Source: Vicugna vicugna
Lineage: Eukaryota
Direction: 5' to 3'
DNA: 64,000 nt
Assembly: GCA_013265495.1 (NCBI GenBank)
Contig: MU057597.1
Coordinates: forward strand, 210,563 to 274,562
Shown here: positions 5,380 through 43,560 of the stretch, piece after piece
Layout of the letters: each line of letters starts with the position of its first letter
Numbering within the stretch: the stretch's first letter is position 1
Program-made: the position numbers and the translations under genes
Notes under the pieces: generated by a model
Told to the model about the DNA's origin: nothing
The model's input: the letters and a program-made list of their open reading frames with translations, nothing else
Databases searched by the model: none

Positions 5380-5384
5380 AAACC

Positions 5385-7691: not shown

Positions 7692-7697
7692 TTTATT
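7692..7697 (-). terminator. Candidate poly(A) signal of gene A
   Basis: A minus-strand AATAAA is kept at the homologous position in B (28147-28152) and D (55906-55911). Confidence 0.4.
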
Positions 7698-10608: not shown

Positions 10609-12269
10609 TCAAGAATGAGTTCTCTGATGAGTGTTAAGCTTCCTTTTTGTGCTAAAAACCTTACGGCACCAATTACATTTGTAAGGATTCTCTTCAGTAT
10701 GAATTCTCTGATGTTTTACAAGCTCTCCTTTGCAATGAAAAGCATTGCCACACTCATTACATTTATAAGGTCTCTGTCCAGAATGAATTCTCTGATGAGT
10801 GTTCAAGTTTGTTTTTGTACTAAAAACCTTGCTGCACTCATTACATTTGAAAGGTTTCTCTCCAGTATGAATTCTCTGATGGTATGTAAGCACTACTTTG
10901 TGACGAAAGGCCCTGCCACACTCATTACATTTATAAGGTCTCTGTCCAGAATGAATTCTCTGATGAGTGTTCAAGTTTGTTTTTGTACTAAAAACCTTGC
11001 TGCACTCATTACATTTGAAAGGTTTCTCTCCAGTATGAATTCTCTGATGGTTCGTAAGCCCTCCTTTGCGATGAAAAGCCCTGCCACACTCATTACATTT
11101 ATAAGGTCTCTCTTCAGTATGAATTCCGTGATGACTTTTGAGGGTTGATTTACAGCTGAATTCCTTGCCACACTCACTACATTGATAAGGCTTCTCTCCA
11201 GTATGAATTCTCTGATGGCTTTTAAGGGTTTTTTTATAAGGAAAGACCTTGCCACATTCAGCACATTTGAAAGGTCTCTCTCCAGTATGAGTTCTCTGAT
11301 GAAGTGCAAGCGATGCATTTTGAGTAAAGCCTTTTCCACAGACGTCACATTTATATGGTCTTTCTCCTGAATGGATGACTTGATGTTGTCTGAGATGTGA
11401 TCTCTCACAAAAGCCCTTGCCACACCCACTGCATTTGTAAGGTCTCTCTCCAGAATGAATCCTGTCATGCTTGGCCAGATTTCCGACGTGAGTAAAGCCC
11501 TTGCCACACTCATTACACCTGTAAGGTTTCTCTCCAGTATGAATTCTCTTGTGACTCCCAAGTGCTTGTTTATGATTGAAGACCCTGCCACACAAATTAC
11601 ACTTGTAAGACCTGTCACAACTAGGAGTTCTCTGATGTCTTGCAAGTTTTGAATGAAAACAAAAAACTTCCCCACATACATCAGATTTATCTAATATCTC
11701 CCTTGGAGGGATGCTCTGGTGTGTACTGAGGTAGGATCCTTGGAGAAGAGCTTTGCCACTCTGAGTACTTTTGTACAGTCTTTCGCTGTGTGTCTTCAGG
11801 TCTCGTGTCAGTACTAAAGGATGCATAAAATCACTCCCATCTATTTCAGAAATGTTGGTTTGGACACTACTAGAAGTTCCTGGAAGTGGTGAAAATGAGG
11901 CACTACTGTTGCCTCTCTTGTCAGCTTCATTAAATAAATCAATTTTCTCTTCACTTTTAAAAATATGCAGTTCATTCTGAAAGCTTAATGCAAGTCTGTT
12001 TCCCCTGGGCTTGGTTCCTGCACCACTTGTGCCATGTTGGTCTCTCTCATCATGCACATTTCCACTACCGTTTACAGACGTTCCTTTGTCATTTCTTTCC
12101 TCATCTCTCTGTTGAGAGTCACTGTCATATGCATTTTCCTGGATGCTCCTGGGGTCACAATGTTTTCTTTCAGTCCTTTCATGTCTTTCTGTCATCGCTG
12201 TTTGGAATAATTCTCTATTGATGTTTGCCTTTAATTGTAATTTCTTGATTACATGTACATGAGACATAT
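10609..12269 (-). CDS. KZFP gene A, last coding exon: linker plus 12 canonical C2H2 fingers
   Basis: 552-aa ORF with CxxC..HxxxH repeats and TGEKPY linkers. The acceptor tttatag|AT at 12269 is in phase 1, matching the KRAB exon. Confidence 0.95.
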
Positions 12270-12989
12270 CTATAAAGAACCATAAGTATTCAATTCATTA
12301 TAACTCATTAATAAATGTTTCACGTTAAATACAGGATAGTACACTAAAACTAGTACTAATACCAAACAGAGTTATGAATCTCCCCAGCATGATCTTATCA
12401 ATGTTAGGACACACAAAGCAATAAAATTATTTACTAAAAGTGAACTGGTCACAGGTAATTCTAATAATTTTATGACAGCCTAATTTCAAACAACCTATGA
12501 CAAAAGGACACAAATGAAACAAAATTCTGTAACCTATCAAAGAAAGTATTTTCAATTATAACTCCAAAGTACGTGCAAACTAACAGAAGATATTGCTGTT
12601 TCATAATTGAGGATGAAACAATTATGCTAAACAGATTTTGTATACTTCCTGGAAAGGAAGAAGTGCTAAGGAACAGAAAATAGCTGTGAAAGCACATAAT
12701 TGAAATCTACAATATGTACATAATACCTGAAATTTGTGGCGGTTTAAAATAGGGAAACAAATTCAGTAGAGAAAAAGTTAAGAATTTCACAAACGAATTA
12801 AAAATAAAAATTTTTTTCAAAATACTTCCTAAGAAAAAATACACCCATAAGTTGGGGAGATGAAATATTTCCCTCAAGAGTTTTCAATAAAAATAAACTT
12901 CTGTTTGCCCAACAAACTCTCCACAGTGAGAAGAGGATCCCAAACACTATTAATGCTGTGGCTTCCTCTCTGCCCTTCTGAGAGCTGAC

Positions 12990-13505: not shown

Positions 13506-13766
<261 letters not shown>

Positions 13767-15225: not shown

Positions 15226-15399
15226 ACACTAGATGCATTCTTTCTGAAATTACAGTTGAGTGAAGTGGCCTGGCCGGGGCTCCAGCCTCTCACCACTGTA
15301 CAATGTGCCTCAGCAGGGACCAACAGAGGAAGCAACGAGAGGAAAAACAGACAGGGAGTGACACAGAGACACAGACACAGAGGGAGTGTGTCAGAGAGT

Positions 15400-15974: not shown

Positions 15975-15984
15975 TACATTGTAT

Positions 15985-20025: not shown

Positions 20026-20059
20026 AAGAGAGAAAAGTCAACTGAGAATATGACTTTAC

Positions 20060-20074
20060 CTGAGAAGGAGCCAT
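20060..20074 (-). CDS. KZFP gene A start-codon exon (MAPSQ; exon about 20060-20154); spliced product predicted 600 aa
   Basis: ATGGCTCCTTCTCAG|gtaaag is phase 0 into the KRAB exon. It matches the MALPQ-type start exon of this ZNF subfamily. Confidence 0.85.
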
Positions 20075-21849: not shown

Positions 21850-22459
21850 GAACGGGAGGCCCGCAGAGAAGAAGGACAGCCCTGAGGAGGACGCGAGGAC
21901 ACAGAGTCTGGGAGGACGGGGGTCTCAGGAGAGGGCCGGGCGCCCAAACTCCCGGGACTCGGTAGAGGACTCCTCCCTAAAGGAGCGGGCTGTCGGTGCC
22001 ACCCTCCAGGGCCGAGAGGGCGATGCTGTGGGCGCGAGTCCACCTCGCGGAAGAGGGCGTTACACTGGCGGGGGCGGAGGGACGGAGTAGAGGGTCCTGA
22101 GCAGGAAAATATCAGGAACAGCGGTGTCTCAGTGACGGAAGGCAGAAAAGCCAAGGCCAGGGACCAGCCTCAGAGCGGTTTCAGACCCAAAGGAAAAGAT
22201 CCCGGACGCGGAGCGGCGCCATCTGGACTTACGTGGCCGGGGGGCCAGGTGGTGAGGATTTAGGTCCGCAGTGACTCCCACACCCTGAGGACGTAGAAAG
22301 GGGGACTCCGCAGCACAGACTTACATTAGAAACTAGGAACTTACTGCTGCTGCGTGACCTTCCCCCCGCGCTCTCCACCTCCGGGTCCGTAAACATCTGC
22401 ACATCCGCGAAATCAGAGGCGGGACTTCCGGGGGCGGGGCCGCGGGGCCGCTGCCTGGG
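21850..22459 (-). promoter_or_regulatory. CpG-island promoter and non-coding exon 1 of gene A
   Basis: CpG-rich, with an ETS/GABP motif CCGGAAGT at about 22424-22431, GC boxes and a GTAAGT donor at 22344-22339. Confidence 0.75.
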
Positions 22460-22933
22460 TGTCAGGGTTAAGAAACAGCCCGGTTTGCACAGGGAGTGGC
22501 GGGAGGCGTGGCAGGGGACTGTGTCACAGGGTGGGGAGGAGGTGATGTGTCAGTGGCCTTGAGATGAGTTCAGACCCTGGGAAACAAGCCCAGGATCACA
22601 GCATGTCGTAGTATGTTGTAAATAATGATTTTACGCATACATAGGTTATGTAAGGTTTAGAACAAAGAACATAGAAGTAAGCATGCGCTAGGGATATTCT
22701 GTAAGCCTCAGGACCAAAGAAATTGACACGGGAATGTGCTGGCAGAAAAATACTGAAAAGCAGGACAGCTGCATCACAGAGCGCGTGCACCACCTTGTGG
22801 CAATAGAATAAAGTGCTGTAAACTTCATGTTCGCTCAGGGTGAAGTCCGCTTTTGGTTTGCTACCTTCTGGCGCATTTATTCGGTTGGGCGGCTCACCTG
22901 CTCGAATTCCACTTCAGCCTCCCTCAGCTGACA
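22460..22933 (+). mobile_element. 5' LTR of the class III (ERV-S-like) provirus
   Basis: TGTCAG...CTGACA inverted termini and AATAAA at 22807; followed by a PBS. Confidence 0.8.
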
Positions 22934-22935
22934 GT

Positions 22936-22953
22936 TGGCGCTGTTAGCAAGAT
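22936..22953 (+). promoter_or_regulatory. Primer-binding site, tRNA-Ser(CGA)-like
   Basis: TGGCGCTGTTAGCAAGAT has 2 mismatches to TGGCGCTGTGAGCAGGAT and starts 2 nt after the LTR. Confidence 0.75.
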
Positions 22954-22989
22954 GACGTGAGTGCCCCCTCTGAAACCCCTGCCCCTGAC

Positions 22990-24000
22990 GGAGATGCTAG
23001 CATGAAAACTATGTGATCTCCTACCTCTCTGTGGTACCCCGCAGCGGCCTATTTGCTGACGTGGTCAGCCTGAGGACTGGGACACAGTGGCGCCCTGGCG
23101 AGATGACGTTTGGAGGGCGCTGGATTTGTTAGAAAATAAAGTCCCACTAGCCCAGCGAGAGGCAGCCAGGAGGGTGGCCTGGATGTTCTCGTCGGTTTTG
23201 CGGCATGCTAGCCAAGACGTGAGAGAATTGCAGGCGCAGGTAGAGCAGTTACAGCGCAGGGAAGAGGAACTCCAGCGGAGACTCAGCCCAGCAGAAAGGT
23301 GCCCGCGTGGTCCTAGCTCCGCCGCCTCCAAGAGCTACTGTGTCTGTGCAGCTCCGGTCCCACCTTCCCGGAGGGCAGTAAGCCCGACCCCTCCCCCGAT
23401 TCCGCTGTGTTACAGCCCGTGGTGGGGCGGGGGTGAAACTGGAGGAGCCCTTGGATCAGCGGGGACCTCCTGCGGGACCGCAGCTATCGACGCGACAAAC
23501 CTACTTTATGTCTTATACATTAATGGTATTGCGAGACCTGGCAAAGCAATGTAAACAGCTTATGGTGAGTCACTCCCCTCATGGCTACTGCTCCTGTGGG
23601 TCTGTGGTGGCACTACTAGCAACATATGTAGACCGGCCCATACGTGAAGTTACTGAGGCTCTGGCTCGTCTGGGGGATGTAGAAATACTGTGGAAGGGGG
23701 TGCGCACTGCCAAGACTCACGGTGAGTCCAAGACCTATGGTGCAGTGACTTAGAAAGGGAACTTCACACAGAGGAGGAAGTTGAGGAAGGCTCCAACTTT
23801 GGTAGGGCCCCAAAAGCTAGCTCGCCGGCAGATATGATGTGATTTACTGGCGGCTGGCTTAGACCATGTAAAATTACATGGCCAGCCTTTGGAGGTGCTG
23901 ATGGCCTTATGGAAAAAATTACACCCTGAGCAACAATACACTCATTTGCCAAACTCCCATCAGGCCAAAGAAGTGGCCTTTGCTGATTTCCTCCTGGACT
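22990..24000 (+). pseudogene. gag: ERV gag remnant
   Basis: RRVAWMF..VRELQAQVEQLQ coiled coil. The C-terminal DLLAAGLDHVKLHGQPLEVLMALWKKL resembles ERV-L/S gag. Several frameshifts. Confidence 0.7.
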
Positions 24001-24049
24001 AGGAGGAAGGCTAAAGTGTTCAGTATGTGGGGCACCCTGACAATCAGAA

Positions 24050-27000
24050 ACCACATTTTAAACTGACTATCCACTAGTTCCCCATGAATCAACAGCGAGT
24101 ACTGCCACAAGTAGACACAGGAGCTGAGATTAGTGCATGGAAATCCAGAGCATTTTGGGGGACCATGGGTTAATATAGAAGGATATGGAAACAAGCAAAT
24201 TCACGTTAAACTAGTGACTGATTTTGGACATTGGTCGTCTGCCCGCTGCTGCATATGAAGTGCATATATCCCCAGTAGCTGAATATATTCTGGGAAGAGG
24301 CATTTTGCAAGGATTACAAATACAGACAACTCAAGGGGAATTTTGCCTGAGAGTTCGCGTGGTGAAAACAGTTATCCAGGGGCATCCTCATCACACACCT
24401 ATGATTTTGCCACAGGCCACACGAGTGGTGAATGTCCGGCAATGTCGATTGATCGGAGGCAATGAGGAAATAGGATAGAGTATTCTGAAGCTTGAGGAAG
24501 CCGGTTTTATTTGGGCGACCCATAGCCCGTGTAACTCTCCGCTGTGGCTAAGCCTGAAGGCTCCTGGAGGATGACAGTGGACTATCGGAAACTGCATAAA
24601 CTCACTACACGCGTGCACGCAGCTGTGCCAAATATAACAGATTTGCTGGACCGGATGTCCCATGAATTGGGTACTTGTCACTATGTGGTTGACTTGGCTA
24701 ATGCATTCTTCTCTATAGATATAGCCCCTGAGAGCCAACAACAGTTTGCCTTACCTGGGAAGGCAGATAATGGACATTTGTTGTGTTGCCGCAGGGATGT
24801 CTGCACGGTCCCACACTGTGTCATGGTCTAGTGGCCTAAGACCTGGCTACATGGAGCAAACCAGATACTGTCCATTTGTTCCATTACATAGATGACGTAA
24901 TGCTAACCTCTGATTGGCTTTCAGAGTTGGAAGCCAGTGCCACAGCGCTGCGAGAAGCCTGGCGGGCTGGGGGTGGGCCATGAACGAGGACAAAGTGCAA
25001 GGAGCTGGATATTCTGGCAAATTCTGGGGTGTTGTCTGGTTGCGTAAGACAAAAGTGCTGCCTGCAGCAGTAATAGACAAAATCCAGGCATATTCCCGCC
25101 CTGAAACAGTTAAACCATTACAGACTTATTTAGGCCTTTGGGAATACTGGTGGGTGTTTATTCGTCATTTGGCCCAGATAGCTAAACCCCGCTTTAATCT
25201 CATTAAGAAGGGAGAAGTCTGAAGTTGGTCTGATGAGATGGAATGTGCATTTGTTGAATCGAAGTGGGCGATGGCCCAAGCGAAAGTGCGGTACAGAATA
25301 GATCCAGACCTCCCTTTCTGGCTAACGCTCCATGTGGACGATGATGGATATGGTTGGGGCTAAGGGCAAAAGCATGGGCAATGGAAAGTGCCCATAGGAT
25401 TCTGGTCTCAGTTGTGGAAACAGTCTCAATATCGTTGTCCTTTAATTGAGAAACAATTTCTAGCAACTTACCCATCCTTAATAGCCACTGAACCCCTGAC
25501 GGGGAGGCAAGAGGTCCAAGTACAGACCACATACCCTGTTGCAGGATGGGCACAGACATGGGCAAAGCAACCCCGATCGGGAACTGCCCAGACCCCAGCT
25601 GACGAAGTGGGGTGCTTATTTGGAACAGAGAGCCCAATACACCGCTAGCCCCTTGGCTGCAGGTTTGTATCAGGTATTAAGACCTGTGAGATTTGCTGTG
25701 CCTGCCGAACAGATGCTCCCATAAGGGGTGGACCCTGTGCCCAGTCCCTTTCATGAAGGGAAAGGGCCACCCCTGGGAACTGCTTGGTATACAGATGGCT
25801 CTTGTAAGGGCAGCCCGCCCACTTGGGTTGCGGTAGCACTGCACCCTGCCACTGCAGCCTTCTGGTATGAGAAAGGAGAAGGCCAATCCAGCCAACGGGC
25901 TGAGTTACAGGCGCCGTGGATGGTGTTGATGAATGAACCTAGCCCCCTGCAGCTCTGCAAGGATAGTTGGGCTGTGTATCGAGGCCTCACACTGTGGATA
26001 CCCCAATGGGCCCTGCAAGACTGGATGATTGGGCAACGACCCCTGTGGGGACAACAGATGTGCAAACAGTTATGGACAATGCCCAAGAAGGTCAGTATAC
26101 TGTTTACCATGTACCAGGGCACCGCCCAGCATTGGCACTGGGCAATGCTGCTGCTGACGTGCTAGCCAAACTCCAATCTGTACAGGCCATGGTTCCGGGA
26201 CCGACATAGGTCCCTGGCGCCACGAGAAACTTGGTAATGTAGGCTCGTACACAATGAGGCAGGTAGCTGAATGGTGGGGCCAGCACCTGAGCCACAGTGA
26301 AGCCAAGGATGCCTTGCGGCAGTGCCCATGGTGTGCTAAGCACCACCCACACTGGCGGCGATGGCCCCAACAGATGGGGAGGATTGCACGGGGAATTCAG
26401 CCATTGCAGGATGGCAAATAGATTGCATAGGCCCCTTTGCTCCTAGTACGGGCTTGCGGTACCTGCTGACAGCGGGGGACACCGCTACTGGTCTAGATTT
26501 TGCTCAGCACGTGCCCCGAGCTACACAAGACACTACTAGTACAACACTGGAAGTTTTACGGGCCTTTTATGGGACTCCCTCAGAAATACAAAGTGACAGA
26601 GGGACCCCTTTTACTGCCCAACAGACCCAGGAATGGGCCAAGGAAAATGATATTAACTGGACATTGCAAGTGCCTTACAGTCCCCAAGCAGCAGGAATGG
26701 TTGAACAGTACAATCACCCATTAGAGGACAAACTGAGGGCTCTCCAACCACAAGGGCGAGGCTGGAACAGTGCCTTACCGCAGGCGGCACATCTTTTGAA
26801 TGAACAATCTCGCCGTACAGGTATGAGCCCACTGGAAAAGTTACTGCAAGGGACCATTCGGAGGCTCAGAGTTGGGCCCGTGCAGGATGCCTGCAATGTC
26901 TCAATAGTGGCGCACACCTTAATATTATGCGCCCCCAGGGTGTTGAACTCGGGACCACAGGACACCTGGACATGGAACAATCAGGTCCAGACTGAAGGCC

Positions 27001-27310
27001 CCTGGCTAGCGCTGTTGCAACCATGGGGCGACGGGCTAAAGAAAGCCCTGCCGGTAACCCCACGTGTGGGAAATGGCCTCTTAATATACAGGTCACCCTA
27101 GGGAAACAAGAGTGTCCCTACTTAAAGGAGCAGGAGCCCTAAGGCTTTGGGCAATTCCAGCAATAGCTCCTGAAGCGCTTCCAGAGTGTCACCAACCCAG
27201 CGTGGGCGGGTTGCTGTGGTACCACCGCCTGGGCAAACAGCTCTTCCTGCCAGTGTGCTCTCACAGGATGAGAAAGTGGCTTGCATCCTCCCAGAAGGGA
27301 GAGAGTTGAC
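24050..27310 (+). pseudogene. pol: ERV pro-pol remnant (protease, RT, RNase H, integrase)
   Basis: Protease VDTGAE at 24111. RT motifs KPEGSWRMTVDYRKL, VVDLANAFFSI and HYIDDV (YIDD at 24885-24896). RNase H WYTDGS..SSQRAEL. Integrase WQIDCIGP..IQSDRG..PQAAGMVE. Many stops and frameshifts. Confidence 0.95.
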
Positions 27311-27312
27311 AA

Positions 27313-27575
27313 TCATGGTGTCCACCTCTGGTCTGTCCTTCCGTCCAGGGTAACAGCAAATTCCATGTTCTCCTGGGCACATAGAGTTGTGCAAGTCCAC
27401 GTCTCTCACTTTTCGGTCTGTGCTGAACTTCCTGTAGACGCAGGAGATGGACTGCCGTGGCCCCTCCACCCCGCGTCCAGAGCTAATCGGAGCACCTTGG
27501 TTCATTGGAACGCCAACAGGACAGTGAGATCACCCTGGGAGTTGTGGCGACAGACTATTCAAAAGACACTCTGAT
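27313..27575 (+). pseudogene. env: Truncated env (SU N-terminus) remnant
   Basis: ANSMFSWAHRVVQ..SVCAELPVDAGDGLPW resembles the CWVC.ELP...GLPW motif of the SU N-terminus and lies directly after integrase. Confidence 0.6.
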
Positions 27576-30500
27576 GTGAGCCCCCCCCCTTGTGTCTTCC
27601 TTCCATTCGTACAACAGAACTATTATCTGAATTCAAAATGCAGATAATAACCAGTGTTTCTTTGATTGCACAACTTGCATACAGTAGGAGGCACCATTTT
27701 CACGTGTACAGTAGAGTGATTTAGTATGTTTGCAAGTTGTCCAACCACAATATTATCATCATACATCACTACCTCTTAAAGAAAATGTTTAGCAGCAAGG
27801 CATTCATTCATTGAATGAATTGATACAATCACACAATAAATTACTATAGAGCCATTATGTTATTTATATGTATTTAATAAAAAGGGAAGCTTGATTTTCA
27901 AACACCTGACTACAACCAACTCCCACAAAAGATTTTGTGGTTCCAGTGCTTTGACTGAAGTGAAGCTCCAAGGGAAATCTTTCTTCACATTTATAATGCA
28001 ACTTCTTTCTACAAGTCATTTCCTTATGAGCATTATCACGTCTCAAGAGACCCAAAATAACTCATTGATTTATATACTTCCCTGTTGTAAAATACAGTAA
28101 AGACACAAGGAAAAGAAAAAAATGCTTCAAAAAATTTTATAAACATTTTATTGAAATAAAAAAGTAACCATGTAACATACCGTCTGATCCCCTAATTTAA
28201 AATTCAAATTTTAACACACTTTTGACAATTGCTTCTTTAGTATATTGCTTAGTTATACTATCTAGAAAAAAATTCCCAGACACTAATTCTTAGCAACCTA
28301 GTGTAAAAGTCTTAGGTCATATATTTAAGGAAGATTTTTTTCAAACATTTCAAACATTGTTTCCCTACTGACAAGTATTAAACGTCACCACAATCTCTTC
28401 CTACTTGGCTTGTGTGATGAAGGTAACAAAACAGCCTGAGGGCTTCCTCTTTTGAGCAACTTTAACCACCTGGAAGTTCAAACCCTAAGTGGGTATGCTC
28501 CCCTAAGCCCCCACCTAGCAATCACATTTACACACCAAGCCCGTCACCATTCCTTGTTTCTTCATATCATTTTTTGAACTTGAAAGTCTCGCCTGTGCCC
28601 CTAGAAATCTGAACTATAGAACATTCTCATACTTGAACATTAATACCACTATAAATGACCAAACCAACTTTTGGCTGGAGGCCCGTCATAATCCAGTGAA
28701 TGGCCACAAAAGCAAATTAGCAACAAAAACTATTTTTGCATAATATATGAAATTCCCAGTGTATCTATCAAACAAAAACTTCCTACTGTGTATGGTTCAT
28801 TTTTAAGAGAAAACTCAGGAATATTGTTCCTCTCTAAGTACTGTACTGAGTTGGCCAAGGAGAAAAGTGAAATTATAGAATTTTTAAATTTTCTACTATT
28901 TTTCATATGTTTCCTATATTCCTATTTTCCCTGCAAATAAATGAAGGTGCATGTCATTAGATGGGTTTGGCTGGGAAAAAAACCTCAGGAAGAAATACAT
29001 TCATGTGCTGAATATTCAGGACTAAGGAGCAGCTTTTAGGGAGTGTTTCAAAAAAAAAAAAAATAGTCCCAAGGTGGAGTCGCTTACCCATGAGACAGCA
29101 AAACAAGACTTAATTGTAGTTTCACCCCTTGAAGAAACGCGACAGTAAACCAATCACTGTCAAGTGTCCTGAACGCCAGAGGTAACCTACAAGGTAAGAC
29201 TTCTGTCCTTCCCTTAAACAAAGTAGCCTTGCCTGAGAGAACCTTTCTCTTTACCAATAACTTTCTATCCCACCCAGTTTATGCCTGAAAAGGCTTCCCA
29301 TAGCGTACAGCTCCTTGGAACACCTCTTTATGTAGAAGATGGGGTGCAGCTAAATTCACAAATCATGCAATAAAACCAACTAGATCTTTAAATGTACTCT
29401 CTTCAATTTTTGCACATCATTCGGAGTCTGAAATAAACTGCTCTGCCACTCAGGCTCTTCTGATTAACTTTTCCTCTCATGGTAATTGCTCTCCCCTCAA
29501 ATTCCAAAAGTAAGAGGAACTTTCCACTAAACATACATATCTACACCACCTACTCCCACGCGATGGAGAACGTGACCAGCTTTCCCCGAGCCTTGTTCCC
29601 ACCACATAACCGGCCACGCTCCTCCTGTGAAATTCGAGCCAGTCCCTGGACGCCCTACTGCTCTGCTCATGGGTGGGGGGTGGGGGGGAGCTTTCTGCGC
29701 TGTAGCCCCCTGTGGTCTGTCTACAGAAGGGCACCCTGAACACGCGTCTGCTGAGTCAAGTCAGTTTTACATTAGTCTCCGACCCTCCCTGATGCTAATC
29801 CACACAATATTGAATCTGATAATTCAGAGTGCTGTTTTTCCTGGGAACTTGGACGTGAGTTGCCGTGCCTGATGAAGTTTGCCCCTTCATCTTACTGATT
29901 CCTTCCCAGGGAGAAAAATCAAAGGCCTATAATGTAGGAATCAAGAGACTTTAAACTTCAGGTTGAGAGGCATGAAAAGTAATGCACTTCTTTCTAGGAA
30001 ACTGAAATACTGTTTAGACATGGAAGATAATGGGTCATTTCCACATGTCCTTCTGCCTCTTATACACACATCATGTCATCAGTTTTACCCTGTTGTGACT
30101 TGTTATGATTCTGCAGTTTGCTGCATTTCAGAGAACTAAACACTTATTTATTCCTAGTTTGCATTCTCTGACGGGTGCTGTGTTTTAATTATTGCTCAAA
30201 AAATTCACAAGATTCATGACATTTGTAAGGATGGATTCCCCGAACAGGAGTTCTTCGGTGAAACCTAAGGGCAGTTTCTTAAAAGTGTTTCCATGCTCAG
30301 TGTACCTGTGTACTTTCTGACCTGTAAGGATTTTCTCATTATACCAAAGCGGTTGGGACATGATGAAAAACGTTACAACATTCGTTGTGTTTGAAAGCTT
30401 GTTCTTCAACTGAAATTCTTTGTGTTCCGCATAGTTGATCTTCAGATACAAGCCTTAGCACACATACTGCTTAGTGAGGTCTCCCTCCAAACTGTATATT

Positions 30501-31608
30501 CTTAAGTCTAGTGGACTGTGAGACTGCATACATTTTCTACCATACGTTACCATGGCTGTTCTTCAACATGGACTTCCTCCTGTTGCCTAGGAAACGGAAC
30601 TCAAACTAAAGGCTTAGCCACACCATTACATTTGTAAGGTATCATGCCAGTAAGTCGACCAACTTGTAATCTTTGATTGAATTTCTTACCACACTCTTGT
30701 GTGGTCTCTTCAGGATAAATATTCTAATCTCTAGTGATGAGTGAGGAGTATTATGAAACTGCTATTTCCATTGCATTTTTAAGTAAGATGTATTTGGTGA
30801 AGCCCCTGCTCTAAGGCATGACCCCAAAGCTTTGCTACACTCAGAACATCTCTAACGTTCTGTCCAGTATGGACTACCTGGTGACTGCTGAGAGGTGAAA
30901 CCCAAGTAAGGACTTTTCCCATTCAGGGCCTCTGTGATCTCCAGAATGCCTTCTCTGCTGAATGAATCTCCTGTCTACAGGTCTGGTCACACTAAACCCA
31001 TGTATCTGATTGCCCTCCAGGACGGCTGTTCCAATGAAGCTTAAGATGTGCACACCTGCTAAAGCCCTTACTTAATGTTCCTCACCAATAGGGATTCTCT
31101 GGCTCTAAGTTAGGCTTCAAACTACAATGAAGGACTTGCTGCACACATTATATTAGCAACCGTCCTCTCTAGTAGGAATTCATGGAGGATCTTTTTTAAT
31201 TGAAGCATAGTTTATTTACAATACTGCTGGTTGACTCTGAGGTATGAATTTTGACTGATGACACTGAGACATTCATTACATCTCTCTGATTTCTGTCTAG
31301 TATGGTTATCTGACAGTAAGTGAGGCTTTTCCACATTCATAGCACATCCATCGTTTCTCCCCACAATGAATCGCCTGTGAATTTAAAGTGTCAATTTTGA
31401 ATGATGACCTTCCCACATATACCATATTGATATGGTTTCTGCTGTGTATCTACTCCCTGAGGCGTAGTGAGGGTTGAGATGTGAGGTAAGGCTTTTCAAC
31501 ACTCTTTAATTTGAAGGGTTTCTCCTCACTATGAATTCTCCAATGCTTTGTAAGTTGTGAATTTTGACCAAAACCTTTCCCACATGTGTCACATTTACAT
31601 GGTTTTTC

Positions 31609-32522
31609 TCATGACTGGATTACTTGATGTTCTGTTAGACGTAAGGCCTGATGTAAGGTTTTGAAACCCTTATTATGTTTATATGATCTCTGTTGAGAAT
31701 GAATTCTCTGATGATTTTTAGGGTTTGTTTTTGTACTAAAACCCTTGCTGCACTCATTACATTTGTAAGGTTTCTCTCCAGTATGAATTCTCATATGGTT
31801 TGCAAGCTCTCCTTTGTGACGAAAGGTGCTGCGACACTCATTACATTTATAAGGTCTCTCTTCAGTATGAATTCCGTGATGACTTCTGAGGGTTGATTTA
31901 CACCTGAAGACCTTGCCACACTCACAACATTGATAAGGCTTCTCTCCAGTATGAATTCTCTGATGACTTTCAAGGCCTTCTTTATAACGAAAGACCTTGC
32001 CACACTCAGCACGTTTGAAAGGTCTCTCTCCAGTATGAGTTCTCTGATGAACTGCAAGATTTCCTTTACAGCCAAAGACTTTGCCACACTCATTACATTT
32101 AAAATGCTTCTCTCCAGTATGAATTCTCTGATGAAGTGCAAGCGATGCATTTTGAGTAAAGCCTTTTCCACAGACGTCACATTTATATGGTCTTTCTCCT
32201 GAATGGATGACTTGATGTTGTCTGAGATGTGATCTCTCACAAAAGCCCTTGCCACACCCACTGCATTTGTAAGGTCTCTCTCCAGAATGAATCCTGTCAT
32301 GCTTGGCCAGATTTCCGACGTGAGTAAAGCCCTTGCCACACTCATTACACCTGTAAGGTTTCTCTCCAGTATGAATTCTCTTGTGACTCCCAAGTGCTTG
32401 TTTATGATTGAAGACCCTGCCACACAAATTACACTTGTAAGACCTGTCACAACTAGGAGTTCTCTGATGTCTTGCAAGTTTTGAATGAAAACAAAAAACT
32501 TCCCCACATACATCAGATTTAT
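31609..32522 (-). pseudogene. Gene B finger array (9 fingers, one with Cys->Arg), out of frame with KRAB
   Basis: 272-aa open frame with C2H2 repeats and no ATG at its start. The deletion at about 32527 disconnects it from the upstream frame. Confidence 0.9.
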
Positions 32523-32962
32523 CTAAATCCCATCTATTTCAGAAATGTTGGTTTGGACACTACTAGAAGTTCCTGGAAGTGGTGAAAATGAGGCACTACT
32601 GTTGCCTGTCTTGTCAGCTTCATTAAAAAAATCAATTTTCTCTTCACTTTTAAAACTATGCTGTTCATTCTGAATGCTTAATGCAAGTCTGTTTCCCCTG
32701 GGCTCTGTTCCTGCACCACTTGTGCCACATTGGTCTCTCTCATCACACACATTTCCACTACCGTTTACAGAAGTTCCTTTGTGATTTCTTTCCTCATTTC
32801 TCTGCTGAGAGTCACTGTCATATGCATTTTCCTGGATGCTCCTGGGGTCAAAATGTTTTCTTTCAGTCCTTTCATGACTTTTTGTCATCGGTGTTTGGAA
32901 TAATTCTCTATTGATGTTTCCCTTTAATTGTAATTTTGTGATCACGTGTATATGAGACATAT
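32523..32962 (-). CDS. Gene B last exon: linker ending at a premature stop (EIDGI*)
   Basis: Acceptor ctttttag|AT at 32962. Homologous to the gene A linker, with a stop right after the deletion junction. Confidence 0.7.
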
Positions 32963-33673
32963 CTAAAAAGAATGATAAGTATCCCATTCATTACAACTCA
33001 TTAAAAAATGTTTCATGTTAAATACATGATAGTACACTACAACTAGTACTTATACCAAACAGAATTATGAACCTCCCTAGGATGATCTTACAAATTTTAG
33101 GAACACACAGAAAAATAGGATTCTTTCCCAAAAATGAAGTGATCCAAGTAATTTTAATACTTTTAGGACAGCCTAGTTTCAAACAACCTATGACAAAAGG
33201 ACACAAATGAAACAAAATTCTGTAACCTATCAAAGAAAGCATTTTTCGATCGTAACTCCAAAGCACATACCAATTAACAGTAGATACTGCTGTTTCATAA
33301 TTGAGGATGAAACAATTATGCTACACAGATTTTGCATACTTACTGGAAAGGAAGAAATGCTAAAGAACTGAAAGTAGCTGTGAAAGCACATAACTGAAAT
33401 CTAGCGTATGTAAGTAGTAACTGAAATTTGTGGCAGTTTAGAATAGGGAAACAAATTCAGCAAAGGGAAAGTTATGAATCTGACAAACAAATTAAAAAAA
33501 AATTTCTAAATAATTCCTAAGAAAAAAAATGTACCCAAAACTTGAGGAGATGAAATATATTCTTCAAGACTTTTCAATAAAAATAACTAAACTTCTGTTA
33601 GCCCACAAAATCTCCACAGTGAGAAGAGGATCCCAAACACTATTAATGTTGTGGGGCTCTGCTGAGAGCTGAC

Positions 33674-33819
33674 CTGTGTTCACACTTTTCATACATTCTG
33701 ACCCATTGGGGTGTTTTCGCTTTTGTTTTTTGCTATTTTCATGTCTCATCCCATAGTTTAGGGCTCTTTTCTATTCTCCCCCAAAATAGAGATAACATTC
33801 AGATCAGAAACAGAAACTC
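33674..33819 (-). pseudogene. Fossil KRAB-B-type exon in gene B
   Basis: VSVSDLNVISIL..KEP*..PNGSECMKSVNT|gtcagc, with a caa acceptor. Confidence 0.7.
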
Positions 33820-34142
33820 TTGCCTATCAGAAGAAAGAACTGCAAAATGCTGTGTCTTTTCCAGAATCACAACCCTCTTGTTTAGCTGAGGAGTGAGGAC
33901 TCTGCAGCTGAGTCTGGGAAAATGTTTGATAATTTCCTCACCACACTCCTCCTGAGTGTATAGAACAGTGTGATATGAAGGTATCTAGCTCTCTCCCCCA
34001 AAATAAGAGTCAAAAGCCAAAAGGCAGAAGACAGGAAGCTGCGAATTCTTTAAGAGTTTGCCACTGAGCTTTATTTATAATTCAGCCCTTTAACAACCCC
34101 TGATATAACATGAAAAGGGCTGATCATCTGAAGAAAGGGTCA

Positions 34143-34427
<285 letters not shown>

Positions 34428-37400
34428 TCACCAAGGGGTCAAGAGGAGAGTTCTTATCTCCATACAAAGTGAAAAGAGGAGAGAAGGGTAAGGATTGTTT
34501 CAGGTGAAGTAAGTATTCTTACAGATGGAAGTTAAGTATTTGGAGCAAGTTGTGTCTCCCTTTTTATTTTTTAATTTTTTCTTTCCTGCTTTAAATTGTT
34601 ACACGTCTTCCTAAAAGAATATGATATCTTCCAATTAATGGAGAGTTTCTGTCTGTCTGGAGAATCCATGACACATATGTAAATAAAACTCAGTAAATTG
34701 CCTATGCTAATGCAGTAGATATTCTGTGCTACACACAGAGTGACAGTCAATATCTAGATGAGCTACAGCATGAGTGGTGTCTTCAGAGATGACAAAGTCC
34801 ACATCGGCTTTACAGAAATGTCAAAATCTCAATTACAATGATGATAACAACAACAATGATTAAAAGTGTTGGAATACTTCCTTTAGGCTAAACTCAAGAA
34901 AAGTAATTTAGAGGCATGAATTTTGTTATCAACATAATATCTCATTAGGAGAGATCTGTTCCCTTCTTACAAAGGAAAAAACTGTGTCACAGACACACTG
35001 AGAAACTCAAATCAACTCGAGAAGCTAAGAAATGTCACAGCAAGGACCTGAACTCAGAGGTTTGGGCTTGAAATTCAACCTTAGGATTCAAAACAGTGAA
35101 GGTACAGAGAAATTCTGGAGAGGCTTTGGAGAAATGGAAACCCTACACTGTTGGTAGGAATGTAATTTGGTCCAGCCACCATAAAACACACTACAGAGAT
35201 TCCTTAAAAACTTGAAAATAGAGGTACACTTTGATCCAGCAATCCCACTCCTGGGCACTGATCAGAAGAAAACTCAAATGCAAACTAGACATGCATCCCA
35301 AGGTGCACAGCAGCAGCATTTACAGTAGCTGAGACATGGAAGCAACCTGAATGTCCTTTGACAAAGACTAAATAAAGGCGGCGTGGAATATCCAGAGTGA
35401 AACACTACTCAGCCTTAAAAAAAGAATTAAATGCCAGTGGCAGCAACATGGATGGGCCTAGGGATTATCATACTAAGCGAAGTAAGTCAAAGACAGATAC
35501 ATATGCTACCACTCATATGTGCAATCTAAAAAAATGATACAAATGAATATATTTATAAAACAGACTCAAAGACATAAAAAACATATTCATGGCGACCAAA
35601 GAGGAAAGTGGGGGAGGGATACATCAGGAGTATATGCTATACTGCATATAGCACAGGGACTATATTCAATACCTCAAAATAATCTTTAATGAAAAAGAAT
35701 ACTATATATGTATGCATAAGTGTATCACTCTGCTGCACACCATAAACTAACAGAAGACTGTAAATCAACTGTAACTCAATTTTAAAAAAGGAAACACTAG
35801 ATGCATTCCTTCTGAAATTACACTCAAGTGAAGTGGCTTGGCCGGGGCTCCAGCCTCTCACCACTGTACAATGTGCCTCAGCAGGGACCAACAGAGGAAG
35901 CAACGAGAGGAAAAACAGACAGGGAGTGACACAGAGACACAGACACAGAGGGAGAGTGTCAGAGAGTGGGAACTGTTAACTCTCACAAATCTAAGGAGAG
36001 GGAAAAGCTAAAGCTGAAAGGGTGGGAGAAGCCATCCCACCTACAGAGAGCAGGCGACTACACTGTGGGGCCAAATGACATCCTTCAAAGTCCAACAGCC
36101 CCCGTTCCTGGGCTCTCAGAAGGCTGCCTGCCATCACCCCAAAGATAAAGTATGTTCTGTCCTGGGTGTGTTCGCCCCAACAAACTAACAGCCCCAGGTA
36201 ACACCCAATCTCACACTAGCTCAGGCTGGCTTCTTTCAGGCTGGTCTCCACCTTATCCATCATAAATTCCACAGCCCTTCACAACCCTGAGATTCTTACC
36301 TCACCTACAGCCAATCAAAAAACTTGGGCACAGCCCCCAACCCATTGAGATCACCAGCTCCTCCGCCCCACCCCGAAAAAGACCCTGGACTTTCATCACA
36401 ACATTCACACAGGCACACCTCGTGTGTGCGCTCCACTGCTGTCTATGGCAGTGTAACCTGATACTTTCCTTTTCTATTTCCAGTCTTTGTCTCTGGTAAA
36501 TTCTTCTAGCACCCATGTACCTGTCTGTTGTGTTCCCCAACATACATTGTATCAGAGAAAATGACAAAATAAAGACAAAAACTAACACAAGAAACAAAAG
36601 GTATTACATAATGTTAATGGTCCATTCACTAATAAGATAAAAGAATTATATGTTTATACCTAACCTTACAGCTTCCCCCAAAATGAAGCAAACATGAACA
36701 GAAATGAAGAAAGAAACAGAATCAGCTCAGAAATAGTTGAGGACTTCAGTGATCCAGTTTCACTTCTGGATGGAACCAGACTGAAGATGAAAAGGAAACA
36801 CAGGACCTGAACAACACTACAGACTGACTGGACATAACACACACGTACAGATCACTCCACCAACAGCAGCAGAGAACACGCACTTCTCAAGTAAACGTGA
36901 AATATTCTCCATGACAGAGCACATGTTAGGCCACAAAAGAAGTCCTAACAATTTTAAGACACAGTGGTCATAGAAGGTTAACTTCTTGTAACCACAATGA
37001 AATAAAACTAAAACAGGAGAAAGAAAAAGGAAAAATTCTGCAAAATATGAAAACTAAGCAACCAATTCTTAAACAATCTATGGGATAAAGAAGAAATCAC
37101 ACGAATATTCTTAAACATTTGGATGAAAATGAAAAGACAACATGCCGTAATTTATAACACGCAGTGAAGTCTGTGGTGAAAGGGAAGTTGACACAGCAAA
37201 ATAGTTACAACAAAATGCAAAGGATTTCAAATCAGAAAACCATTTTTACATCTCAAGAAAGTAGAAAGAGAATATCAAACTAGATCCAACTTTAGCAAAA
37301 AGAAAGAGTGAAATAAGATTTGACCAGAGAGAAGGAAAAGGATATTAGAAACATTTAAATATCAACAAAGCAAGAGTTGGTGTTTTGAAAAAACTTAAAT

Positions 37401-37641
37401 GGAAAAACCCTTAAGTAGATCAGGAAAAAAAGAGAAAAAGAACAAAAACCAGATATGAAACAAGAGACACTGCAACTGATATGGGGGGAGGGTATAGCTC
37501 AAGTGGTACAGCACATGCTCAGCCCCCAAGAGGTCCTGGGTTCAGTCCCCAGTACCTCCTCCTCCAACCGGATATCAATGAAGAAACCTAATTACCTCCC
37601 CCTCATAAAGACAAACAACACAAGCAATTGATATGGAAGTC

Positions 37642-38199
37642 TGCCGGAGCCTGCCGGCAAAATGAACAGGGCCGAAGACACGGTCACTAAGTCTAAGAAA
37701 AGAAAGCACACAGACACAGAATGGGATCGAGAGGGACAGTCCTATGGCCTGCCGAAGCAGAAGCCAGACACCGCCAACGCAGTTTATTCTGCAACTCTTT
37801 TTATAGCATGGAAGAAGGAAGATACATTGAATACCAGAAAGCTTACATAGATTCTTTTATGACTACACTCATGTTTATCTCAAGGAATGACATTTACAAT
37901 CATCAATCTAAGAAGTCCTGTTTTTAACTTTATCTTATTTTCCTTGGGCAAAGAACAAAGCACAGAAACTCCTTCAGGGGAAACATCTGTTAATCATTCA
38001 CCTTAAGAACATTGGGGTGGCGGGATAGGGAATTCTTGGAGAACAAGTTTCCCAGAGCTGTGTCCTGTAAATAGGGTTATCAACTCCTGAATACCAGACC
38101 TTCATTCCATGAGGCAGCTCCCCGCAGGGGCTGTGTCCTGTACACAGGGCTGTTAACTCCTGGATACCAGACACTCACTTCATGAGGCAGCTCCCGGCA
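37642..38199 (-). mobile_element. Young class II (betaretrovirus/ERV-K-like) solo LTR
   Basis: TGCCGG...CCGGCA termini and a perfect 6-bp TSD GAAGTC. TATAAAA and AATAAA lie close together on the minus strand, with a 73-bp direct repeat in U3. Absent from copy A. Confidence 0.85.
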
Positions 38200-41185
38200 G
38201 AAGTCAGTTTTTAAAGGACTATAAGGGAATGCTATAAACAATAATGCCTACAAACCACATAATCTAGAACGTTTTTAGAAACACACAACCTACTAAACCT
38301 CAATCATTAAAAAATAAAAAAAAAATTTGAACTGAATTATGACTAGAGACTCAAGTAGCAATAAAAGATCTCAAAGAAAACCCAGGATCAAATAATTACA
38401 CTGCAGAATTCTACCGTTCAAAAAAGAATAATTTAAAAAAAAATAATAATCTTCAATAGTGCTAAAAATTCTGCAGGCAAGATCCTGAAACGAAACCCAC
38501 AGAAAGACCCAACAAGAAAGGGGAACTAAAAACCAAAACTCTCTTGAATACTGATGCAAAATCCTTGACAAAGTACTAGCAAACCAACTTCAACAGCACA
38601 TTCAAAATATCTGACTTCATAAGCAAAAGGATTCTATTCCTATAAGGCAAGAGGCACTCAATATACAAAAATCAATTCATTTGATAGATCACATCAACAG
38701 ATGAAAGAAAAAAAACACATAGATCATCTCAACTGATCCATAAAAAAGCATTCTGCAAAATTCAACAACCTTTCAAGACACAAACACTCAACAAAATAGA
38801 AACAGTAAATGTTCTCAACAGAATGAATATCATTTACGGGGTGGGCGTCAGTGGTAGAGTGCATGCCTAGCATACATGGGGTCCAGGGTTCAAACCCCAG
38901 TACTCAAGTAAGTAACTAATCAATAAACTGAATACCTTCCCCCATGAGCGAAGAAAACAAGTGAATATGACTTACGAAACACGTACAGATAACATGATAC
39001 TAAGAAGCGAAAGAATGAAAGTTTTTTCCTCTCAGATCAGGAAGAAGGCAAGGATGTACTCTCTGCACTACTGTTTTAAAAAGTACTGAAAGTCCTGCCA
39101 GTGGAATTAGACAAGAAAAAGAAATGAAAGTCTCACAAAGTGAAAAACAAGTAAAATTAACTTGTTTCTTATATGATAAGGTTACATATATGTATAACCT
39201 GTAAAGATTCCACAAGAACACTGGTACATCAAATAAAAATTTTATTGAAGTTGCACAATAGAAAACAAACATGCAAAAATCAGCTCCATTTCCATATACA
39301 ATGAACAAAGTCCATACAAAAAATAGAAGAAAACTATTTGGTAAGTATTTAAGAAGTGATGAAATATTTAGGGAATACATTTGCCAAGATGGACAAGGAC
39401 TTGTACACTGAAAACTACTAAACATTCCTAAAAGAAATCCAAAAATATACACATAAATGACAGACAACCTGTACTCATGCACTGCAAGTATTAATACTCT
39501 TGAAATGTCCAAACAACACAAACTCTTCTACAGATTCAATGGAGTCATCATCAAAATTCCAATGGCTTTCTCTGCAGAAATAGGAAAAACACACTAAAGG
39601 TTATAGGGAATCTCAAAGGGCCTGAAATATCGAAAACGTTGGAAGAAGAAACATGGAGGCAACCTTTTTTTAGATTTCAAAGCATCCTACAAAGTAATCA
39701 AGATGGTGCGTTACCGGCATAGACAGATACAGAGATCAGTGGAACAGAAGAGAATGCTCGGATACAATCCTTTGCATCTATTTAAAATGTACTGACAAGG
39801 ACGTTAAGATTGCAGAGTGGAAAAAAGAGTCTCACAACAAATGGTGCTGGGAAACTGGGTATTTACCTGTAAAACAATGAAGCTGAAACCTTATGGGCCA
39901 AAAAGCACAACCAACATAGTGAAAAGGAAAAAAACAGAAGAATGGAGGTGATGAAAGTGATATAAAGAATTTCCGACTCTCAAACATTTAGATTTATTTC
40001 ATAGTTTAAAATAGATGATGGAATAAAACAGCCTCTATCACTGATATCTCTTACTCATTATGATTTCAGTCACTGACTCACTCATTCAGCTTCGATTCTC
40101 TTAGAAAATGTCACAACAGATTTCCCCTTATTGCTCTATTTCCAGATTTTACCAGGTATTGGGCACGTTAATACCGACATCTACATGCAGCTTCTGTTAT
40201 TTTAAAGGAGGTACTGGGGATAAACCCAGGCCCTCGAGTAAATATATATTTTTTAATATTTTGCTTTATTTATATTTTGGTTTTGTTTTGGGGAGAGGTA
40301 ATTAGGTTTACTTATTTATTTTAAACATGTGCAGCTCCCTTATCTTGGTTTTTAGAGATTGGACAGTGCATCTAGATGGGCCGCTACACAACCCTGCTGC
40401 CCAACAGCACTGACACACCAGTTGTTTGAATCCACTAGTGTGAAGCCCTGCCCAGCACAATGCTCAGTGGAGACTCTTCGCACGTTCTAGGTCACTGGGT
40501 CACGGGGATGGAATCTAAGTGGAGATGACAAACACTGAGGAAAGGAGCTGGGTGACTGTGAATGTACAGGCGTGACACGGGATACTTAGAGTCAGACAAG
40601 ATTAGCAAGTCCAAAAGAGGGCATTTTGGAAGGACAGACAAAACAATCAACTGATGTGGTGTATATATACAATGGAGTACTACTCAGCCACAAAAAAGAA
40701 CAAAATCATGTCATCTGTAGCAACATGGATGAATGTGGAGTGCATCATTCTAAGTGAAGAAAGCAGGAAAAAGAAAAAAATACTATAGGCTATCACTTAT
40801 ATGTGGAATCTAGAAAAAAGAGTCTAAAAAAAAACCCACACAGAGAAACTTATTTACAAAAGAGCAACAGACTTATAGATGTAGAAAACAAACTTAGGGT
40901 TACCAGGGGGAATAGTAGGTGGGAAGGAATAAATTGGGAGTTTGAGATTTGCAGATACTAACTGCTATATAAAATAGATAAACAAGTTTATACTGTATAG
41001 CACAGGGAACTATATTCAATACCTTGTAGTAAGCTATAATGGAAAAGAACATGAAAAGGAAGAGAAGGAATTGTGTGTGTGTATGAAGGTAACATTACGC
41101 TGTACATCAGAAATTGACATAACATTTTAAACTCACTATACTGTGATAATAAAGAGAGAAAAATCAACTGAGAATATGACTTTAC

Positions 41186-41197
41186 CTGAGGAGTCAT
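41186..41197 (-). CDS. Gene B start exon (MTPQ; exon about 41186-41280)
   Basis: ATGACTCCTCAG|gtaaag; an in-frame 3-nt deletion relative to A. Confidence 0.75.
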
Positions 41198-42939
41198 TCC
41201 TGACTCCTCTTCTTTCCTCTTCCTCCTCTTCCCGACTTCTTCCTCAGACGAGTGGAGTCTTCAGAGATCAATCTTTCAAGCTGAAAACATTCTGTTTAAT
41301 GTTCCTAAAAAACACCCACTTCCTGTGCCACAACCACACACATCGGGGGAACCTCACCACGTGGACTAAACAGTCCTCTGCTGCCCGCTGTCACAGGAGG
41401 GACTCAGGACAGGAAACCACACAGAGACCAACCAGGGAGTTCTTCACATTTCTTGGTATCTCACCCCACTCGTGGTGAGGCCTACAAAGCGATTATTTGA
41501 CAAGTGTACACACTGTGTAATAATTCTCACAAGAAAGTAATTTATACTTCTGTCAACTCGAGATTACCATTTTGCCTCTATGTGGTGATTCCAAGTATAC
41601 AGTCGCACTATGAGAGTAACTACAGTCAGCAGGCTGTACATTAGATGTGCGGGTTGCACTATTTTATTTTACAACTCAACGTTTGTAACCTTTGGCCTAC
41701 ATCTCCCCGTTTCCCTCTCCACCCAGCCCTCAGGACAACCTTTACACTCCAAGGCTCTATGAGTCTCACATTTCAGGTTTCCAAGGAGCGTCCTTCTTCT
41801 GTCCTAATACTGTCTTAATTCATGGCTGACATAAATTTTCTGTCCACCCATGTGTCAACAGACATTTTAGCTCATTCTGCATCTCGGCTGTCCTGAATAA
41901 TGCAGTAATGCTCACTGGAGTGCAGATATTTCCCTCAATAGAATGATTTTGTTTCCTTTGGATATCTGGCCAGAGGTGTGTAATTTAAGCAAACAAACGT
42001 TAAGTGTATTACATTGTAAAGCCATCAATCAGTATGACGCAGATTAGTTGTCCACATCCAACAACTCACCTGCCATCTGCATTCAGTTTGCCCCCTCAAC
42101 CTGCACTATGTGTTTCCATTTCATTCTTTATCTGTCTCCCTATTTCTTTCTGTGTCTCTATCTTTGTTCCCCTCTACCCTCCCTCTGTCCCTGCTGCGCT
42201 CCTATCCCCTCCCTGGCTCCGGTCCTGCCCCACTCGGCAACGTGTTTCCCCTCTTGCTGCTCTTTCCCCCCAACCTTTCTGATTGCCCTGTATCTCCACG
42301 GATTTCTGCCTGATTCTTCCTCCACCTCTGCTCCCTGTCTGCCTGTGGCTTACATCCTTTCTATCCTTTCACCCTCCCTTCCTCCCCACTCTCACACCCC
42401 AGGTGGCTGTGCCTCCTTCCTGCTCCTTCTCTCTCTTCCTTTGCTCTCCAAGTCAATAGCTGTCCTCTGTTTGTCTCCCGGGATCACCATGCTTTGAAGG
42501 CCATGGTTCCAAGTCTTCTAAACTCTCTCCCACTCCCTGTGTGAAGCGCCTAACCGTTGTTAGTCACCGTCTCCCCACCTTCCCGCGGACCCAGGGCCCC
42601 TCTCCTGCTGTGGCTCTCCAATGCCCAGAGATCCTGTTCATTTATTCATGTGTCTATTTTACCCACCTGCTATTTTAAGGGATAAATGTATTTACTACCG
42701 TTTTGCAAGTGCCTCAGCCATCCTCAACGACACCATCGATTCTCCATCATTCTTTTCTCCTCAGTGTTTGTACTTTCCTCTGAGCTGCTCTCTGTCTCTG
42801 TTTCAACTGAACCCCTCGCCCAGGAATTTACTGCAGGAGTGAATAAATGCCTGCCTAAAGGGAGAGACCGTTTTCCAGTGGAGTCGAATTTGGGACTAAC
42901 AATACTGGGGAATCACACGGCTGACTCAGGTAATCTTGT

Positions 42940-43560
42940 ATGCGGGGTGGGGGAAGGGCTGACTACGAAGGGGAGGAGGAGCAGGACAGCCCTGAGGAGG
43001 CCGCGAGGATATAAGGGCTGGAGGGAGGGGATCTCTGGTGAGGCCGAGCTCCCCAAAATTCCGGGACCCGGCCTCCCGGGAGCGGGGCGGCCGGCGCCGC
43101 CCTTGAGGCTGGGGGCGCGAGTCCACCTCGTGGAAGAGGACGTTACACGGCCGGCGGAGAAGGGAGGGAGTAGAGAGTCAAGAGCAGGAAAATATCAGGA
43201 AAGGCAGCGCCTCAGTGACCGAAGGCACAAAAGCCAAGGCCAGGGAGCAGCCTCAGAGCGGTTTCAGGATCCCCGACCTGGAGCGGCGCGTCCGGACTTC
43301 CGTGGCCGAGCGGGGCCGGGTGCTGGGGCTTTAGCTCCGTAGACTCCGCGCTGCACACTTACACCAAAAAAGAGAAAGGAGCTGTGCTCCACAGCCTCCG
43401 ATCGGCGACCCCCGCTTTCGCTGCCGGAAGAATGTGAGCTGAGTTAGAGGCGGGACCTCGTAGGCCGGGGCGTGGGCGGAGCGCCAGCGGCGGGGCGGGG
43501 CGAGGAGGGAGCGCAGCTCTTTAATTGGTGCGCCGTGAGACGGGGGGCGGGGGTGCTGCT
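42940..43560 (-). promoter_or_regulatory. CpG-island promoter of gene B
   Basis: CpG-rich with GC boxes and a candidate GTAAGT donor at about 43362-43357. Homologous to the A and C promoters. Confidence 0.7.

Follow-up and report, generated by a model that had tools for sequence, protein, structure and literature searches.

A decayed ERV-S-like class III provirus head-to-head with an intact KRAB zinc-finger gene in Vicugna vicugna: probably a passenger beside a host promoter

Does an endogenous retrovirus (ERV) that abuts the promoter of a KRAB zinc-finger protein (KZFP) gene govern that gene, or is it carried along beside it? The question is raised by a stretch of 64,000 nucleotides from Vicugna vicugna (hereafter the window; GenBank assembly GCA_013265495.1, contig MU057597.1, positions 210,563 to 274,562, forward strand), in which self-comparison reveals a tandem KZFP cluster on the minus strand, with paralogs A, B, C and D. 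Next to gene A lies a proviral element on the plus strand, opposite to A. An original prediction, made from the letters of the window alone, took this element for an ERV-S-like class III provirus placed head-to-head in the promoter of A, with bounds of 22460 to about 27590, and proposed that A might be coupled to the chromatin state of its long terminal repeat (LTR), or even act against its family in a feedback loop. Bounds, orientation and identity were all confirmed. As to function, we consider it probable (roughly 0.62) that the decayed provirus is a tolerated non-coding passenger, with A running on its own CpG-island promoter. Papers given below by PMC number are cited from excerpts of their text.

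The ERV-S-like class III identity is supported by tree, motif and tRNA comparisons. A phylogeny of the reverse transcriptase (RT) against HERV-S-like and ERV-L-type rows placed the element inside the ERV-S-like clade. In a tree of 29 rows (the element and 28 rows picked by hand out of the 72 of a larger tree), it joined two Camelus copies (98/95) within a 95/95 clade that includes the HERV-S-like rows P0289, P0292, P0304 and P0317, labelled so from a by-eye match to the published HERVS consensus and not from database names; a 100/99 branch parted this ERV-S group from one dUTPase-bearing pol row of ERV-L type. The same placement was obtained in the larger tree of 73 rows, the product of a quick search only, for which 72 of 133 candidates were kept and 61 dropped for having fewer than 115 aligned residues, and in which the motif labels of some gypsy rows are wrong. 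Counted by hand over two RT blocks, the element shares 81/114 residues with the published HERVS consensus and 54/114 with that of HERVL, and RT identity is 63% to P0304 versus 45% to the ERV-L-type P0129. Among named sequences, the retroviral proteins come nearest to gene models of Vicugna pacos, Camelus ferus and Camelus dromedarius, and a bat gene model is among the RT relatives; the lineage has members in horse, bat and three camelid species. Matches in the PDB to a camelid copy were to generic RTs only and were discarded.

The serine primer binding site (PBS) of the original prediction was likewise borne out, with 16/18 positions matching tRNA-Ser-CGA-1-1 as given in PMC10359600, which was used as reference in place of camelid tRNA genes; hand counts for the alternatives were 13/18 for Ser(AGA), 11/18 for His and 9 for Leu-CAG. 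Among 67 matches in the PBS table of PMC4724089, as excerpted, no entry starts like this site, and the excerpted master table has none with its first nine letters. The predicted env remnant was found directly 3' of pol, and agrees by eye with the beginning of HERVS env in 19 of 41 columns; it has no match in Pfam and no usable match in the ESM Atlas. A dUTPase remnant 3' of the integrase, suspected by eye, was ruled out by a profile search (PF00692) that found none in the window stretch or in the C. ferus sequence P0125 and matched the positive control P0129 at 2e-28. By definition, HERVS is a class III group that has a class I env and lacks dUTPase, and HERVL bears a dUTPase (PMC4724089); the element departs from ERV-L in that no dUTPase match follows the integrase, an env stub is present and RT is nearer to HERVS. 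Such elements had been called much rarer than ERV-L. The direction of this claim holds, with 16+4 = 20 HERVS chains against 86+75 = 161 HERVL chains in hg19 (PMC4724089, Table 4), but the rarity is only modest. On its sequence, the element is a decayed class III provirus of the HERV-S lineage.

The anatomy of the element is given in Table 1. Its 5' LTR carries AATAAA at 22807, no canonical TATA, and SP/KLF-like G boxes in U3 at 22501, 22505, 22529 and 22534 (range 22501-22539); a 2-bp spacer separates the LTR end at 22933 from the primer site at 22936. All provirus genes are broken, and the RT end branch is 0.17, compared with 0.028 in a copy from C. ferus. By eye, and judged by the published HERVS gag, the capsid lacks about 120 codons near 23610, and no CCHC knuckle was detected in three frames of 22940-24400, although in a gag so broken a decayed motif could escape. 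Pfam matched RT, RNase H (25782-26105) and the integrase core (26406-26684). An intact class III pol aligns as 10 segments over 24045-26858, which amounts to 9 frame changes in 2.8 kb, and pol meets its stop at 27351. Rfam gave no match in 21000-29000.

A second LTR copy or 3' LTR was not found within the window; with a single LTR and a cut at about 27590, the element is not a complete provirus in the sense of two LTRs and a target-site duplication. Further copies were not confirmed for any of 3 candidates among viral contigs or 20 among metagenome contigs, and seven loci from scans with an LTR-PBS pattern were rejected as chance hits that match over the pattern only (18-27 nt). A second TGTCAG at 22548 offers an alternative LTR start, and just before it an ungapped alignment has 14/20 matches to C and 13/20 to B. 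We favour 22460, because alignments of 22460-22547 to B and to C score no higher than those of shuffled sequence (688 and 520 of 1000 shuffles as high, with an N gap in C at the matching stretch; B versus C, 0/1000). The start at 22548 finds no support in this test.

Table 1. Features of the provirus, of gene A and of the related paralog sequences (positions in the window)
Feature	Position	Strand	Remarks
5' LTR	22460..22933	+	474 bp; 6-bp inverted ends TGTCAG/CTGACA
Primer binding site	22936..22953	+	16/18 to tRNA-Ser(CGA)
gag remnant, HERV-S type, broken	23002..24040	+	CCHC knuckle absent
pro-pol remnant: protease, RT, RNase H, integrase core	24045..27353	+	dUTPase absent; 9 frame changes in 24045-26858
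env stub, about 75 codons of the surface subunit (SU) N-terminus	27350..27575	+	like HERVS env by eye; transmembrane subunit (TM) and remainder absent
Junction at run of C, cut provirus / 3' flank of paralog B	27581..27597		self-comparison
Ancestral-type upstream sequence, common to B and C, missing beside A	43552..45627		self-comparison
Gene A exon with 12 C2H2 zinc fingers in an open frame	10609..12270	-	fingers 7-12 are three two-finger units
Gene A KRAB-A exon, 127 nt	13622..13748	-	in phase with start-codon and finger exons
Gene A coding start, 5 codons before GT donor	20060..20074	-	exon common to B, C and D
Predicted exon 1 and core promoter of A	22345..22459	-	donor 22344, ETS 22424-22431, GC box 22432
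Host CpG island: intron 1 start, exon 1, core promoter of A	21850..22459		65% GC, CpG observed/expected 0.75
Paralog B unit	27597..43560	-	92% identical overall to 7136-22278, mosaic 82-100%

How close the provirus comes to the promoter of A was stated accurately by the original prediction. The head-to-head arrangement is as described; the LTR begins 28 bp from the ETS motif ACTTCCGG (about 30 bp had been claimed), and 115 bp from the likely donor of exon 1, an exon predicted from sequence. The ETS motif and the donor are kept in C, and in B the ETS match and that donor are lost. Gene A itself is intact as claimed, since its start exon, KRAB-A exon and 12-finger exon can be read in frame if a decayed KRAB-B exon is skipped.

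At its other end the provirus is cut. From 27597 onward the sequence aligns with 7136-9339, and the env stub is thus joined to the 3' flank of B at about 27590. The LTR had been said to replace the upstream sequence that B and C share. This sequence consists of two blocks (43552-44668 with 50943-52164 at 75-77%, and 45396-45627 with 52253-52481 at 81%), and neither has a match beside gene A, so that the absence itself stands. Insertion displaces DNA and does not delete it; because of this, the LTR alone is insufficient, and a second rearrangement is needed. This later event, either a deletion that followed the duplication or the duplication breakpoint itself, would have taken away the old upstream sequence of A along with the 3' LTR and what is missing of env. 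Decay clocks fit either order of insertion and duplication, the provirus having about 3.2 frame changes per kb and the A-B comparison 81 non-triplet indels in 12.3 kb, or about 3.3 per kb per lineage, by two measures that are not strictly alike. Paralog B was considered as a picture of the locus before insertion and ruled out, given A-B identities of 77% over exon 1 and 61% over the promoter, the lost ETS motif and the frameshifts; it is no clean control because its mosaic identity points to gene conversion or to a chimeric B. The difference between the promoters of A and B is independent of the LTR; it had been overlooked in the original prediction, as had the cut through the provirus. The cut could also be an assembly join within the segmental duplication, the real provirus being longer. 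The two N gaps of the window, the near-identical tracts of A and B and the position of the junction on a run of C would suit such an artefact, but both gaps are at least 23 kb away from the junction, and the flank of B differs from that of A by 10% and is therefore not a collapsed copy; we regard this explanation as unlikely.

Together, the above observations are consistent with the following history. An ERV-S-lineage retrovirus would long ago have integrated into a cluster of GC boxes just upstream of A, in opposite orientation, most plausibly at 22460 because the LTR end is clean there. In U3, the first 90 bp carry SP/KLF-like boxes at the place taken by GC boxes in B and C, and may in this way have rendered the insertion harmless. 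The provirus would then have decayed, and a deletion or duplication breakpoint would have produced the fusion between env stub and B's 3' flank that is seen at about 27590. Gene A could have survived because its CpG island, with exon 1, the ETS motif and one GC box, is host DNA and not part of the provirus, and it is most likely still driven from that island. Its frame stayed open while the provirus decayed. Passengers of this kind accumulate in KZFP clusters, whose ERV load and rearrangement have been described (PMC12575710, PMC13709654).

Several points weigh against a mere passenger of this kind. Gene A has no host sequence at all beyond 28 bp from its ETS motif, and of the GC-box matches, which number 4-6 in B and C, only 1 is left in A; because A has lost its upstream host DNA, GC boxes included, some dependence on U3 is possible. 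CpG dinucleotides are better retained in the LTR core and leader (5' kb; 47 of 72 expected) than in the body (106 of 270; p=0.003), which could reflect an open LTR. In reporter assays on 12 human KZFP promoters, the neighbouring HERV increased activity in 7 cases (PMC7577720). As to the lineage of the element, both trees were built without mammalian HERV-L and MuERV-L proteins.

Alternatively, the LTR may have become functional as an enhancer of A or as an upstream promoter module, such that A would rise when ERV-S LTRs open, without protein A binding the family. We hold this as a tentative alternative, distinctly less probable than a passenger but ahead of all others. U3 with its G boxes abuts the core promoter and is the only upstream DNA that A has, CpG is kept in LTR and leader, and there is human precedent from reporters and CRISPR excision (PMC7577720). 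However, LTRs and CpG islands alike often contain G-rich boxes, leaders may be CpG-rich from the outset, and the 88 bp nearest the island are CpG-poor (3 versus 6.2 expected); the 5' CpG retention would fit shelter by the island as well as an open LTR. A comparison of sequence-word share (0.56-0.60 in 14 of the 24 runs listed, 0.05-0.09 in RNA runs) is no evidence either way on the expression of A. Coupling of A to LTR chromatin, as put forward in the original prediction, is plausible by analogy with the human cases (PMC7577720). The opposite effect, in which the provirus silenced A through spreading H3K9me3 and methylation and A is on its way out, appears very unlikely. The PBS and leader do lie less than 600 bp from exon 1, and the marks set by KZFP-TRIM28 have a range of about 1 kb around bound sites (PMC8931336), but the CpG island has been kept (observed/expected 0.75), and the 12-finger frame is still open, against about 3 frameshifts per kb in the provirus.

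The feedback loop asks for more, namely that LTR opening induces A and that protein A in turn binds the LTR family or the Ser PBS and recruits TRIM28. In favour of the loop, gene A is intact and has traits of an evolving repressor. Across its fingers 7, 9 and 11, taken with B7, variation affects 4/4 DNA-contact columns versus 6/20 others (p=0.02, post hoc), which hints that specificity has been under selection but says nothing on the target of A. Change at contact residues is general in KZFPs and counts against the loop. Fingerprint sharing with A was found for 1 of 272 proteins compared (P0007, a B-like model), and the best named full-length relatives of A, ZNF813-like and ZNF415, are 46-55% identical; because no relative has a known target, none can be borrowed for A. 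Several KZFPs of the mouse Chr4 cluster target ERVs within their own cluster (PMC12575710), but proximity confers no specificity on a KZFP (PMC13709654), a genome holds hundreds of KZFPs and many ERV families, and the family copy seen here is old and decayed. Silencing of PBS and LTR sequences by KZFPs was another premise of the original prediction; PBS-binding KZFPs are documented for Pro and Lys sites (PMC8931336), and no PBS-Ser-binding KZFP is named in the literature that we found on the subject. We therefore rate the full loop as highly improbable.

In its most elaborate form, the idea would make A a single-locus sensor and repressor that reads ERV-S LTR chromatin in cis and binds the LTR or the Ser(CGA) PBS, a reading to which we give very little credence. 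The history behind it would be that the upstream sequence was swapped for a class III LTR, the frame was kept, and afterwards a finger pair was triplicated and its contact residues changed. Were it true, A would bind a site 500 bp from its own start and would be a first KZFP for a Ser PBS. Regulatory coupling is possible and, if present, would be unexceptional; the feedback loop is unsupported.

Further observations concern the finger exon and the paralogs. Within 10612-11103, fingers 8 and 10 of A are identical in DNA, and fingers 7, 9 and 11 differ mostly at contact residues. Between A (11272-11607) and B (32104-32439), fingers 1-4 show 1 difference in 288 bases compared, and fingers 5-8 show 5-12 differences per 72 bases each; judging from this pattern, gene conversion has recently homogenised the near-identical tract of a gene that is intact and one that is a pseudogene. 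The duplicated unit comprises 7136-22278 for gene A and 27597-43347 for gene B. Its A-B identity is patchy, with tracts of 98-100% as well as values of 82-89% in the CpG island, a sign of piecemeal gene conversion or of a B that is chimeric. Over 43340-43560, exon 1 and promoter of B have diverged from A (61-77%) far beyond the gene body, and C is closer to A there; 29780-30417 and 37642-38200 are present in the B unit and absent from the A unit. Gene B is frameshifted, its finger exon having a stop and a deletion near 32527. P0007 is a 788-aa KZFP model, near-identical to B and open across the sites where the B of the window is broken, and may be a corrected gene model or an intact allele of B.

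Paralog C, near 50100-52200, is a promoter-only copy, and D is a more distant relative; no KRAB motif was found for C or D within the window. Over 44700-50100, the promoter of C and its start-codon exon (47200-47480) are followed by the upstream sequence of B without an intervening KRAB or finger exon. A second provirus remnant lies at 4400-5850 on the minus strand. The PBS table of PMC4724089 contains an Arg/Trp-type entry identical to its PBS at 5379, and its LTR is 71% like an inverted stretch of solo-LTR type at 53078-53273. The tRNA-Ala calls of ARAGORN at 52999-53068, 61680-61752 and 62850-62922 are copies of a tRNA-derived short interspersed element (SINE) that recurs throughout the window.

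For human and mouse, the literature already describes ERVs close to KZFP promoters, the expression of KZFPs from LTRs and the notion of feedback. The surroundings of human KZFP starts are enriched in HERVs, their excision lowered expression, and a negative HERV-KZFP feedback was proposed (PMC7577720), while mouse KZFP clusters gain ERVs through duplication, with some members targeting ERVs of their own cluster (PMC12575710). We found no publication that treats camel, alpaca, endogenous retrovirus and class III together; Dfam or Repbase may hold this family. PMC8605555, on camelid ERVs, gives counts for the ERVL superfamily and does not name ERV-S in its excerpt, and its supplements may hold the family; general ERV nomenclature is covered by PMC6114882. 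The present locus adds a camelid copy of the ERV-S lineage and another ERV caught in a KZFP duplication. As an intact KZFP gene with an LTR as its only upstream DNA, it also offers a place to ask whether a CpG-island promoter needs, tolerates or obeys an LTR. Binding of the family by A, if it occurred as well, would make this a direct single-locus case of the proposed ERV-KZFP feedback loop.

Among named families, the element is most like HERV-S (HERVS, HERV18/HERVL18, LTR18; PMC4724089). The likeness, drawn from the coding parts and the PBS, extends to RT (81/114 and the same tree clade), the type of gag N-terminus, the missing zinc knuckle and dUTPase, the Ser PBS and a class I-like env start directly after pol. 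The element differs in belonging to a separate camelid lineage in the tree, and this copy is without some 120 codons of gag, the greater part of env and a 3' LTR. EqERV-S1 to S3 of the horse are likewise Ser-primed ungulate proviruses, some with env loss (PMC5682256); they are likened here by description only, were named there by PBS alone, and S1 is reported as full-length. With HERV-L/ERV-L the element shares a class III RT (54/114), the absence of a gag knuckle and a similar C-terminal tail of pol. ERV-L, however, has a dUTPase after the integrase, no env and mostly Leu or Met primers (PMC4724089), whereas the element has no dUTPase match, an env stub and a Ser PBS.

As in mouse KZFP clusters (PMC12575710, PMC13709654), an ERV is found within a tandem cluster together with segmental duplication and mosaic paralogs, but the breakpoint here joins the ERV to unrelated host DNA and not to another ERV, and the ERV is not itself duplicated. 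With the HERVs by human KZFP promoters (PMC7577720), for which the same feedback model was proposed, the locus shares an LTR close to a KZFP start. Those elements lie kilobases away and their effect was measured, whereas the LTR described here is known from sequence alone, stands 28 bp from a core motif, and is the only upstream DNA that gene A has.

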